The notes under the pieces were generated by a model. That model made no database searches and was not told the origin of the DNA. It worked only from the letters and a program-made list of their open reading frames with translations. From a virus: 64,000 nucleotides of DNA. The translations under genes were made by a program, and so were the position numbers. Where the stretch lies: the IMG/VR virus record IMGVR_UViG_3300042894_004439, positions 1-64,000 of that record; one strand, written 5' to 3'. Positions 14,849-16,877 of this stretch are shown here, one piece after another (the stretch's first letter is position 1; each line of letters opens with the position of its first letter).

Positions 14849-15133
14849 TTACTTGGCCGCAACCTTTGGTGTTCTTGGCTTGGGTTCTGTTTTGGGTTTT
14901 GCAGGTGCTTTTGGCTTTACAGGTGCTTTTGGCTTTGCAGGTGCTTTTGGCTTTGCAACTACTGCCGCAGGTACTACTGCGTCTGGTACAACAACCACTG
15001 CTTCAACTGCTGGAGCTGTAACAGGAACTGCGTTGGATGCTTCAACTGCTGCAGGCAATGCTTCTACCTTGCGGGGTTCTTCTGGAATAGTTTTGGGTCT
15101 AAGCGACAAGAATTTTTTTAAGAATGTTAACAT
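14849..15133 (-). CDS. Ala/Pro/Lys-rich histone-like protein with (AKPKAP)n repeats
   Basis: Amphipathic N-terminus MLTFLKKFL, 18-nt tandem repeats; AGGAG SD and TAAATA on minus strand. Confidence 0.75.
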   Translation of the reverse strand: MLTFLKKFLSLRPKTIPEEPRKVEALPAAVEASNAVPVTAPAVEAVVVVPDAVVPAAVVAKPKAPAKPKAPVKPKAPAKPKTEPKPRTPKVAAK

Positions 15134-15182
15134 GGGTTCTCCTATACAGTGTATTTACTCCAAAAAAAAAATTAATTTTTAT

Positions 15183-15211
15183 TTGACATTTATGTGGCAA
15201 TGCAATATAAT
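15183..15211 (+). promoter_or_regulatory. perfect sigma70 promoter with PhaR-box-like operator in the spacer
   Basis: TTGACA-17-TATAAT enclosing ATGTGGCA-A-TGCAATAT. Confidence 0.7.
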
Positions 15212-15264
15212 AACATAAATACTCAGTAGAAACCATGAGTAGCTACATATACAGGACATTACAA

Positions 15265-15441
15265 ATGAAATACCTATCAGAAAAAATGCTGTCTATCTTG
15301 GAACGTTTAAGTGAAATGTTTCCAGGTAACAGTTATCAAAGCCGCTTAGATCAATATCTAAGCACCAAAGGCATTACCGATGCTGCACAGTTGGAAACTT
15401 ACGTCCGACAATTTAATTCTCAACTAGAAACTTATCTATGA
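15265..15441 (+). CDS. small protein resembling the DUF3563 family
   Basis: SRLDQYLSTKGITDAAQLETYVRQF resembles the YL..A.D..DLE.R pattern; AGGA SD. Confidence 0.6.
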   Translation: MKYLSEKMLSILERLSEMFPGNSYQSRLDQYLSTKGITDAAQLETYVRQFNSQLETYL

Positions 15442-15542
15442 AAAACTTTTTAAAAACCATTTACAAAGGTCTAATCACCTGGACAGAAATGATCCACGAA
15501 TATCGTCAACACTCTGCCAGCAGACACCATTATTGGAAATAA
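15438..15542 (+). CDS. small ORF (34 aa)
   Basis: ATGA-coupled; MKNFLKTIYKGLITWTEMIHEYRQHSASRHHYWK. Confidence 0.55.
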   Translation: MKNFLKTIYKGLITWTEMIHEYRQHSASRHHYWK

Positions 15543-15544
15543 TC

Positions 15545-15622
15545 ATGGAATTAGTAGCAATTCAAATTATATTATTTGGGATAATAATTCTAATGTATTT
15601 GGTACAGGAGTTGGATCAATGA
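15545..15622 (+). CDS. small single-TM ORF (25 aa)
   Basis: MELVAIQIILFGIIILMYLVQELDQ; GGA SD. Confidence 0.5.
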   Translation: MELVAIQIILFGIIILMYLVQELDQ

Positions 15623-15720
15623 ACTATTTAGACACATTGTTGATGTTGATACGCTGGGCGCAACAAGGTTGGGAAGTCCATCCTATCAACCTCAATGATG
15701 AAATCACTGGTTGGGTTTAA
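15619..15720 (+). CDS. small ORF (33 aa)
   Basis: AGGAG SD, ATGA-coupled; MNYLDTLLMLIRWAQQGWEVHPINLNDEITGWV. Confidence 0.55.
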   Translation: MNYLDTLLMLIRWAQQGWEVHPINLNDEITGWV

Positions 15721-15742
15721 TCCAAAAATTGATAAGTAATTG

Positions 15743-16447
15743 ATGAATGAACTTATTGCCACCTTGGTGATGACACACATCACCATAGTGTGTGTTACTT
15801 TGTATCTACACCGCGGGCAAGCACATCGCGGCATACTTTTTCACCCTGTGCTAGAACACTTCATGCGAGCCTGGCTATGGCTCACCACAGGCATGGTTAC
15901 CAAACAGTGGGTAGCAATACATCGTAAACATCACAGATTCACAGAAGAATCTGGCGATCCACACAGCCCACATGTGTACGGAATTCTTAGAATTTTATTT
16001 CGCGGCGCTGAACTGTATCATTCGGCCAGCAAAGACTCTGAGATGGTGCAACAATATGGCGCAGGCACACCCAACGATTGGCTGGAACAAAACGTATACA
16101 CCAAGCACAGCCGCCTGGGTATCTTGCTCATGTTACTGATAGATCTATTGCTGTTTGGTTATTGGGGCGTGTTAATATGGATTATCCAAATGATATGGAT
16201 CCCATTCTGGGCGGCAGGTGTAATCAATGGGTTAGGACACTGGTGGGGGTATCGAAATGGTGAAACCAAAGATCACAGTAGAAACATTGTTCCTTGGGAC
16301 ATTGTTGTTGGTGGCGAATGCCTGCATAATAACCATCATTTGGATCCTGCTAACCCTCGACTGAGCCGTCGTTGGTTTGAATTTGATGCAGGCTGGATGT
16401 GGATACAAATTTTTAAATTTTCTAGGTTATTGACTTTAAAAAATTAG
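15743..16447 (+). CDS. membrane fatty acid desaturase (delta-9/DesA-like)
   Basis: Three His boxes HRGQAH, HRKHH, HNNHH; DPHSP; GVINGLGHWWGYRN; EFDAGW. Confidence 0.93.
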   Translation: MNELIATLVMTHITIVCVTLYLHRGQAHRGILFHPVLEHFMRAWLWLTTGMVTKQWVAIHRKHHRFTEESGDPHSPHVYGILRILFRGAELYHSASKDSEMVQQYGAGTPNDWLEQNVYTKHSRLGILLMLLIDLLLFGYWGVLIWIIQMIWIPFWAAGVINGLGHWWGYRNGETKDHSRNIVPWDIVVGGECLHNNHHLDPANPRLSRRWFEFDAGWMWIQIFKFSRLLTLKN

Positions 16448-16466
16448 TGATCGCTCACTACAAATA

Positions 16467-16500
16467 ATTGTTGCACTGCACAATAATTATCATATATAAT
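16467..16500 (+). promoter_or_regulatory. promoter with PhaR-box-like operator upstream of the phasin-like gene
   Basis: Quasi-palindrome ATTGTTGCA-C-TGCACAAT covering -35 TTGCAC; TATAAT 16495-16500. Confidence 0.7.
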
Positions 16501-16505
16501 ATAGT

Positions 16506-16557
16506 ACAAGACGCTGCATAGGGCGGGTCTTGTTAACATTTCGCTTAATAAAGGAAA
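16506..16557 (+). promoter_or_regulatory. ROSE-like two-hairpin leader
   Basis: ACAAGAC-G-CTGC-ATAGG-GCGG-GTCTTGT followed by TTTC-G-CTT-AATA-AAGGAAA sequestering the SD. Confidence 0.7.
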
Positions 16558-16562
16558 ATAAA

Positions 16563-16826
16563 ATGTTCGCATTAGATAACACAATCGACTCTATTCAAAC
16601 CAGTCAAAAAACTTTCGTTAAAACTTTTGTTCAAAATGAAACAATTGCAGATACACTCAACAAACTAGTTGATACCAACGCCGAATACTCCAAAAAGGCT
16701 GTTAAATTGGGTGCTGACACAATGGCTACTTTGGTCGAAGAGGCCACCAAATTTGCTCAAACTGCTGGTAAATTTGATTACGCTAAAATGGTTGAAGAGT
16801 TTACGCCAAAAGCAAGTAAAAAATAA
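16563..16826 (+). CDS. putative phasin-like (PHA granule-associated) helical protein
   Basis: 87 aa amphipathic all-helical Ala/Thr/Lys-rich protein with no Cys or Trp, ending PKASKK; PhaR-type box upstream. The family call is inference. Confidence 0.5.
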   Translation: MFALDNTIDSIQTSQKTFVKTFVQNETIADTLNKLVDTNAEYSKKAVKLGADTMATLVEEATKFAQTAGKFDYAKMVEEFTPKASKK

Positions 16827-16845
16827 AACAATAATTGTTTGGCCA

Positions 16846-16877
16846 AAATCCAGTATTTCGATACTGGATTTTTTTTT
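16846..16877 (+). terminator. intrinsic terminator
   Basis: AAATCCAGTAT-TTCG-ATACTGGATTT plus T-run. Confidence 0.85.

Follow-up and report, generated by a model that had tools for sequence, protein, structure and literature searches.

A candidate PhaR operator of host phasin type at the promoter of a small amphipathic protein gene in a freshwater jumbo phage

Can a bacteriophage sense the carbon that its host has put into storage? The question is raised by positions 14,849 to 16,877 of a 64,000-nucleotide stretch of viral DNA (the window), which is the first 64 kb of the 83,174-bp IMG/VR virus record IMGVR_UViG_3300042894_004439 (CheckV completeness 22%). The window is a piece of an uncultured freshwater jumbo phage, since relatives with the same genes have genomes of 300-353 kb, with terminal repeats in some. 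An earlier note on this DNA had described two promoters, each overlapped by a palindrome resembling the binding site of PhaR, and had proposed that the phage plugs into the PhaR regulon of a host that stores polyhydroxyalkanoates (PHA). The promoters, palindromes, open reading frames (ORFs) and terminator that it listed are all present where it had placed them. The reading that we favour, with a probability of roughly 0.55, is that host PhaR gates the gene of an 87-amino-acid (aa) protein according to the state of the polyhydroxybutyrate (PHB) store, the product being most likely a phasin-like granule coat.

The 87-aa gene (16563..16826, plus strand) is preceded by promoter 2 (16471..16500, plus strand), which has a -35 element TTGCAC at 16471-16476, an 18-nucleotide (nt) spacer and a -10 element TATAAT at 16495-16500. 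An automatic promoter scan picks the adjacent register, TGCACA-17-TATAGT, and promoter 2 of relatives reads TTGCAN-17-TAYAAT in the same register. The sequence ATTGTTGCACTGCACAAT at 16467-16484 stands ahead of this TATAAT and contains box 2, TTGTTGCACTGCACAAT (16468..16484, plus strand), a candidate PhaR-type operator that overlaps the -35. The earlier note had matched this site to TGCRNYGCASMA, which we take to be the PhaR consensus; the fit holds, at 16472-16483, and is the only one in the window, though 1.15 matches are expected by chance. Box 2 also agrees with TKKTGC-N3-GCAMMA without a mismatch. A 2025 paper on R. eutropha (PMC12849132) gives the palindromic PhaR motif as YTKNTGCRNYGCANMAR and accepts up to three mismatches; box 2 has one, at an outer position of this 17-mer. 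Both boxes of the region are placed where a bound protein would hinder RNA polymerase, the -35 lying within box 2 and box 1 (described below) filling the spacer of promoter 1. Taken on the window alone, the boxes are no better than chance: TTGCANTGCA at up to one mismatch is seen 36 times vs. 49 expected, with no excess, and ATGTTGC-N3-GCAACAT at up to three mismatches 9 times vs. 7.7 expected. Because these counts do not exceed expectation, the case for the boxes rests on the relatives of the phage and on host phasin operators.

Relatives of the 87-aa gene number 100 in IMG/VR; 80 viral loci encoding them were fetched, and the 160-nt regions upstream of the gene come in 66 distinct versions. 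Of these, 32 contain a box that departs from the published motif at two positions or fewer (14 with one mismatch, 18 with two), 89-129 nt ahead of the ATG of the homologue. The background in the rest of the same loci is 113 matches in 692,490 nt (0.026 per 160 nt), from which about 1.7 would be expected in the 66 regions. In many relatives, ATGTTGC-N3-GCAACAT keeps a constant spacing from a TAYAAT -10. The exact form TGTTGC-N3-GCAACA has one copy in each of the relative genomes G001, G003 and G004 (320-353 kb), at the 87-aa gene; because it occurs once per genome, box 2 appears by its distribution to be an operator of this one gene, as opposed to a promoter element in general use by the phage. 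The latter possibility was also rejected on the grounds that the box serves 1-2 genes per genome and is absent from the promoter of an hsp20 gene with the same type of leader.

Just upstream of box 2 lies a second palindrome, TAGTGATCGCTCACTA (16445..16460, plus strand), the sole perfect match in the window. Each complete relative genome (G001-G004) has exactly one copy of TAGTGA-N4-TCACTA, adjoining the PhaR-type box: roughly 20 nt separate it from the exact box in G003 and G004, and in G001 it flanks the box on the opposite strand of the record. No enrichment of this palindrome was seen in four candidate host-lineage genomes. Two identities considered for it were rejected, a terminator because the position of the T-run is inconsistent across relatives, and a CRP/FNR-type site because the half-site spacing is 2 bp off the consensus.

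Which protein would read box 2? The PhaR domain PHB_acc_N (PF07879) was found in none of five phage records, namely that of the window and four relatives at least 92% complete. Since the phage is without phaR, the regulator in the mechanism that we propose would be the PhaR of the host. The bacterial desaturases nearest to a desaturase encoded in this region come from Burkholderiales (Hydrogenophaga, Limnohabitans and Malikia, 55-60% identity), and PhaR is encoded in 4/4 genomes of these candidate host genera. The same four host-lineage genomes hold 64 sites of the form TKKTGC-N3-GCAMMA vs. 7 for a reversed control, and a box at up to two mismatches lies upstream of 8 of their 12 Phasin_2 genes and of 2 of their 4 phaR genes. 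The box thus suggests PhaR-bearing, PHB-storing Burkholderiales as candidate hosts.

A wider sample of the Limnohabitans family comprised 41 genomes and provided 29 new best-phasin loci, of which one was dropped for a short flank. In all 28 genomes counted, the best phasin gene carries a box at up to two mismatches, usually in two copies, over a background of 0.078 per 260 nt. One of the host boxes abuts the -35, and another, past the -10, reads ATG(C/T)TGCANTGCAACAT, which is the form found in the phage. The candidate phage operator is identical in every letter to the operator of phasin genes in a lineage that plausibly includes the host. By analogy with R. eutropha, where PhaR binding is established, we expect the phage box to be bound as well.

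The layout of the host promoters (loci L307-L335, L164, L165 and L168) runs from a TCTAGAA..CTCTAAA repeat through box A, a CTTGCAAT -35 and a TAnAnT -10 to box B, which sits at the start site, in agreement with the description of R. eutropha phaP1. The Limnohabitans, Hydrogenophaga and Malikia phasin promoters resemble that of the phage in the palindrome, ATG(C/T)TGCANTGCAACA(T/A), and in a -35 of TTGCA type; they differ from it in having two boxes about 58-60 bp apart and the upstream repeat, whereas the phage promoter has a single box and, upstream, the palindrome TAGTGA-N4-TCACTA instead. A low-GC member of the Burkholderiales (genome G100, locus L379, locus GC 36%) has a phasin-gene TTGACA promoter with ATTGTGCGATGCAGCAT in its spacer. 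This is a 3-nt-spacer box in a layout like that of promoter 1 of the window, and the genome may be a better clue to the host than the high-GC genera. Perfect 3-nt-spacer boxes were also noted where a patatin-like phospholipase gene begins in Hydrogenophaga (L301) and just before a Na+/H+ antiporter gene in a Limnohabitans metagenome-assembled genome (L291). Both genes may belong to the host PhaR regulon as well; as evidence they were set aside as too uninformative. A site beside a box in Hydrogenophaga L305 was rejected as coincidental, the region being rich in DnaA boxes.

The circuit with which the phage arrangement is best compared is that of R. eutropha H16 (Cupriavidus necator), as described in PMC12849132. 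At phaP1, the PhaR sites are found immediately 5' of the -35 and around the start of transcription, and, according to the introduction of that paper, nascent PHB granules sequester PhaR. The operators of phaP1 and phaP3 are, like the phage box, 17-bp degenerate palindromes with a single central base, a TGC-N3-GCA core and a conserved A at position 7. The likeness extends to the circuit, in which a site at the -35 and transcription start blocks RNA polymerase and the target is a small amphiphilic protein. The phage differs in that the operator is carried by a virus without phaR and that one box contains the -35, instead of two or three boxes flanking it. Its product, roughly half as large as PhaP1, is not demonstrably homologous to it, and its box is a PhaR site by prediction.

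What does the gene behind box 2 encode? An AlphaFold2 model of the 87-aa protein (mean predicted local distance difference test score, pLDDT, 84.2) has helices at residues 2-22, 26-70 and 73-80, in the shape of a helix, a turn and a long helix. The hydrophobic moment of the helices is 0.40-0.47, a value equalled in 0-2.3% of shuffles, so that the small amphipathic alpha-helical character of phasins is present. At E<=1e-3 the family counts 292 representatives, every one a small protein. In searches with hidden Markov models (HMMs), Phasin_2 is the most recurrent weak Pfam match among 59 members (17/59 at E<=0.1, best 1.6e-4; the next family 5/59), and the phasin model TIGR01841 is the most recurrent NCBIfam match (6/59). 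The named ESM Atlas neighbours of the protein are phasin and PHA-granule clusters (0.83-0.89), which we treat as leads only. A family-profile HMM search of PDB sequences returned only designed helical bundles. The protein thus shares with Phasin_2 (PF09361) and TIGR01841 proteins a small, all-helical, amphipathic and highly expressed-looking character; it differs in scoring below the curated cut-offs, in a negative profile comparison and in length (87 vs. 127-185 aa in host phasins). Of the phasin-likeness proposed in the earlier note, the amphipathic helices and the recurrent weak matches remain, while every score stays below threshold. Together, these data suggest that the protein is phasin-like in its properties and its regulation, with family membership below every formal threshold.

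The gene has signals of its own on both sides. Its 5' leader (16507..16556, plus strand) is predicted to form hairpin 1 (16507-16532) and a short helix at 16540-16556, in which CTC/TTC pairs with the Shine-Dalgarno sequence. For an alignment of 45 phasin-like leaders, RNAalifold predicts 12 pairs, and compensatory changes are seen at 7 of these. Rfam searches found no family on the leader (E<=1), nor anywhere in the 64 kb at gathering scores. The hsp20 gene of the window (1927-2385, Pfam HSP20 E=1.4e-15) has a leader of the same type at 1859-1926, a hairpin followed by GCTTAATAAAGGA, without the palindrome. Downstream, an intrinsic terminator (16845..16877, plus strand) consists of a 12-bp stem, a 4-nt loop and a T-run. 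With a predicted sigma-70-type promoter, a structured leader and a terminator, the 87-aa gene appears to be a self-contained unit.

We propose the following mechanism. In a cell without free PHB-granule surface, host PhaR would occupy box 2, occlude the -35 and keep the gene off. Where PHB is made or held, PhaR would be titrated onto the granules, freeing promoter 2 and turning the 87-aa gene on; the structured leader may add post-transcriptional control. The small amphipathic two-helix product would then coat granules in the manner of a phasin, altering the protection or mobilisation of stored carbon during infection. Promoter 1 (15183-15211) would show the same response in a leakier form, and a late-type motif, TAAATA, would offer it another start.

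Promoter 1 is a sigma-70-type promoter, TTGACA-17-TATAAT, on the plus strand (15183..15211; 12/12 consensus positions), and box 1, ATGTGGCAATGCAATAT (15192..15208, plus strand), is a degenerate PhaR-type palindrome within its spacer. Box 1 has two mismatches to ATGTTGC-N3-GCAACAT and four to the published 17-mer, and so on its own falls outside the three mismatches accepted in PMC12849132. Beyond the window, orf58 homologues were compared in 80 loci. A palindrome occupies the place of box 1, in the spacer of a sigma-70-type promoter, in 32 of 43 distinct upstream regions, and in three of the four complete relatives (G002, G003 and G004) the orf58 orthologue is preceded, at 31-61 nt, by a 3-nt-spacer box with one mismatch. 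Because orf58 homologues and complete relatives carry the box at the same place, the phasin-like gene and orf58 are, as judged from these comparisons, putative targets of one palindrome class, and promoter 1 with its weaker palindrome is probably the second member of a two-promoter regulon. The claim that both promoters carry a PhaR-type palindrome has therefore held up, with conservation upstream of the homologues of both genes and identity to the phasin operator of candidate hosts.

The gene behind promoter 1, orf58 (15265..15441, plus strand), encodes a very conserved 58-aa protein of no assigned family. The start at 15265 is preferred because an ATG at 15235 is not conserved. A search listed 1589 clusters of this protein, the best 120 of which are at 83-98% identity with no Pfam domain among them, and orf58 was among the most conserved small proteins met in this analysis. 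The TAAATA late-type phage promoter motif (15216..15221, plus strand) is followed by a conserved leader, CTCAGTAGAAACC, and motif and leader are kept in nearly all of the 41 orf58-homologue upstream regions inspected. The proposal that the protein resembles DUF3563 (PF12086) did not stand: Pfam and NCBIfam gave no match to orf58 at E<=1, Pfam gave none to the homologue in L224, and what is left is an ESM Atlas neighbour (0.88, 177 shared features) that serves as a lead only. Host DUF3563 genes were likewise rejected as PhaR targets, since a PhaR-type box was found at 0/6 of them (L370-L375); several of the six have a conserved TAGGGTTTAYAC-type repeat upstream. Three overlapping micro-ORFs of 34, 25 and 33 aa follow orf58 on the plus strand (15438-15542, 15545-15622 and 15619-15720, from the ORF list). 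By tblastn in the 80 orf58 loci, orf33 was found in 31, orf34 in 6 and orf25 in 3, the queries being short and of low power, and L224 keeps the gene order orf58, orf39, orf31. In many relatives, a 205-aa alpha/beta hydrolase gene (4364-4981 in L224) separates the operon of orf58 and its micro-ORFs from a desaturase gene in convergent orientation. The hydrolase has an AHSLGG motif and scores just under the cut-off for Abhydrolase_6 and PGAP1; its place beside the desaturase suggests a lipid-related neighbourhood.

A number of observations weigh against the reading in which host PhaR controls the synthesis of a granule coat, and they are best considered together with the explanations that compete with it. 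The binding of PhaR, the release of the promoter by PHB and the attachment of the protein to granules are proposed steps, and the lineage genomes sampled are those of candidate hosts. The comparison of 16563-16826 with phasins, which had been suggested as a check on the earlier proposal, gave no match above threshold: the Pfam Phasin_2 score is 15.1 bits vs. a gathering cut-off of 24.9, none of 10 further, longer family members matches Phasin_2, hhalign of the 59-sequence family with 11 host phasins gave a probability of 0.3% (E=0.21, with a small template alignment), and Foldseek of the AlphaFold2 model returned nothing from the PDB at E<=0.001. The PHB_depo_C and PhaC_N domains were found in none of 9 phage records, so that there would be no wider phage PHA gene set of the phaC/phaZ type. 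If PhaR gating is right, the 87-aa protein might, in place of a granule coat, be some other abundant amphipathic helical protein, for example a chaperone-like, membrane-active, nucleoid or virion assembly factor, needed only in carbon-replete hosts. The sub-threshold scores, the negative profile and fold comparisons and a length half that of host phasins are all in keeping with this, and the leader held in common with the phage hsp20 gene suggests a stress or chaperone expression class. We nevertheless consider it unlikely, given that phasin models lead the recurrence lists of two independent HMM libraries, that every named ESM neighbour is a PHA-granule protein and that the operator is near-universal (28/28) at the phasin promoters of the sampled host family.

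Other difficulties concern the palindromes themselves. In box 1, the left TGC core has G for the conserved T, and box 1 is not above chance, TKKTGC-N3-GCAMMA at up to two mismatches occurring 46 times in the window. In 27 of the 43 orf58 upstream regions (within L194-L273), the palindrome has a 4-nt spacer, TTGTGCGGTCGCARCAT, and this form replaces the 3-nt form upstream of the phasin-like gene in L022, L023, L026, L030, L045 and L068. The four host-lineage genomes show no excess of this form (34 sites vs. 28 for the control), and it adjoins a phasin gene in 0/30 sites sampled from 151 Burkholderiales genomes. The idea that it is the operator of small-genome Burkholderiales was dropped, as 0/4 phasin upstream regions from two genomes were convincing. 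The 4-nt-spacer form may be a weaker PhaR site, may be recognised by the PhaR of a different host genus or may serve a protein other than PhaR. A perfect match to it in the window, TGGTGCCATTGCACAA at 62348-62363, lies inside an ORF (61708-62559) and is probably there by chance. Upstream of the phasin-like gene, 34 of the 66 regions have no match at up to two mismatches, and several of the boxless promoters are of a plain TTGAT/TTGAC type, which indicates that the control is dispensable. Conservation of the boxes across related phages, which the earlier note had named as a check, is seen at both genes, in 32 of 66 and 32 of 43 upstream regions. The dominance of the 4-nt-spacer form at orf58, its use at the phasin-like gene of loci such as L022 and L026 and its lack of host enrichment would be accounted for if the palindromes were operators of another regulator, phage-encoded or from the host, and the likeness to PhaR sites were convergent or irrelevant. 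The 16445-16460 palindrome, gene-specific as well, matches no known binder and is always found beside box 2, and jumbo phages encode many unassigned small proteins. This explanation has a rather low likelihood in our view, lower than that of a protein with a role away from the granule. It would leave to coincidence an identity of 15-17 bp, flanks included, with the promoter-proximal phasin box of 28/28 genomes, the restriction of the motif to just these two genes in genomes of 320-353 kb and the fit to the published PhaR motif; a PhaR-like domain was not found in the phages, among whose proteins other helix-turn-helix (HTH) types were not surveyed. More improbable again is that the promoter is a relic, captured from a host phasin gene, or a decoy whose replicated boxes soak up PhaR and derepress host PHA genes. 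The 25 nt of box and flank in Malikia L168 recur almost unchanged in phage loci L015 and L017, and the 1-2 sites per genome would be amplified with the genomes during infection. Yet the distance from box to -10 has stayed fixed while the protein diverged to 44-59% identity and the flanks changed, which points to selection on promoter control, and the coding part has no detectable similarity to host phasins, which speaks against recent capture.

Control by the PhaR-type box does not appear to extend to the other genes of the region. The DesA-type fatty acid desaturase (15743..16447, plus strand; ORF start 15740/15743) has three His boxes (HRGQAH, HRKHH and HNNHH) and belongs to Pfam FA_desaturase (E=2.3e-14, 54.2 bits vs. 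a cut-off of 29.7). Its score with NCBIfam DesA, 388.2 bits vs. a cut-off of 400, falls short because the protein covers no more than profile positions 10-239 of 385. The earlier note had placed this gene under promoter 1. It has, however, a late-type motif of its own, TAAGTA (15733..15738, plus strand), 4 nt ahead of the ATG at 15743, and motifs of TAAGTA/TAAATA type were seen by eye immediately 5' of the ATG in most of 33 desaturase-homologue regions. A transcript from this motif would look leaderless. A PhaR-type box was found in 0/33 of these upstream regions, and the desaturase gene is convergent, on the opposite strand, in 44 of the 80 orf58 loci. The desaturase thus appears to be an independent unit, outside the control of the box.

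Divergent from promoter 1 lies the gene of a 94-aa AKPKAP-tailed small protein (14849..15133, minus strand). Its relatives are 31 metagenome proteins of 78-113 aa without Pfam domains, in which an N-terminal MF.KI..FF.GK, PEAPYKVE..PAGTEAS, VVVVPDAVVP and the basic KPKAP tail are conserved. Granule-DNA tethers of the PhaF/PhaM type combine a phasin or PhaM domain with a basic AAKP/PAKKA tail. The ORF had been likened to these proteins; it has the basic tail and lacks the domain, since neither a phasin nor any other family was found in Pfam, NCBIfam or PHROGs, the sole Pfam match being DUF3729 (E=0.28). In 2 of 80 loci, an AKPKAP homologue is the divergent neighbour immediately 5' of the phasin-like gene. 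Within 6 kb of the phasin-like gene in the 80 loci, ClpP was found in 37, the desaturase in 17, PstS in 11, and orf58 and AKPKAP in 2 each; the neighbourhood is variable, and the conserved gene module that had been supposed does not exist. The proposal of a phage wired into the host PhaR regulon therefore stands as far as operator identity and the absence of phaR from the phages are concerned, and falls away for the desaturase, the AKPKAP protein and the module.

Other genes of the window near this region encode PstS-like, UvdE, short DnaE, ClpP, radical SAM, glycosyltransferase and Hsp20 proteins, and no tRNA was found in the 64 kb. Near-identical stretches are present in 20 lake-water metagenome DNA runs, with no RNA run among the matches listed. 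Against the GenBank phage collection, from which near-identical records were possibly excluded, 4 kb of the region gave no blastn match and the 87-aa protein gave nothing by tblastn at E<=1. In IMG/VR, orf58 has relatives in 353 viral stretches.

The finding combines two known kinds of system, the host-regulator-gated phage auxiliary gene and the PhaR-phaP circuit. The former is exemplified by cyanophage pstS and phoA, auxiliary genes driven via host PhoB boxes, in which, as here, a phage gene without a regulator of its own uses an operator of host nutrient status. The difference lies in what would be sensed, here an intracellular storage polymer, and in the regulator, proposed to be a granule-titrated repressor. 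A chromosomal parallel is the putative PhaR modulon of Candidatus Accumulibacter, in which a palindromic motif was reported upstream of phaP, phaR, phaC and some transport genes (PMC4796919). This too is a comparative-genomics motif proposed as a PhaR site without binding data; it differs in being chromosomal and in covering many genes. A limited literature search on phage and viral phasins found no report of a phage phasin or of a phage PhaR box.

What would such control mean for these phages? A broader picture, which we hold tentatively and at somewhat less than even odds, is that a large clade of freshwater jumbo phages carries a PhaR-wired mini-regulon, consisting of a granule coat, the 58-aa protein and micro-peptides, with which it reads the carbon store of the host and remodels granules for replication. 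If true, the infection programme would differ between PHB-rich and PHB-poor cells, and phage auxiliary genes would be gated by an internal storage state, beyond external nutrients. Phages would also make granule-surface proteins of their own, and for the first time a virus would have been shown both to sense a storage organelle of bacteria and to act on it. PHB-storing Burkholderiales, for example Limnohabitans, are major freshwater bacterioplankton. Since these candidate hosts are abundant and hundreds of related contigs carry the genes (the 100 and 353 IMG/VR relatives of the 87-aa gene and orf58), an effect on the flow of carbon at lysis could be widespread.

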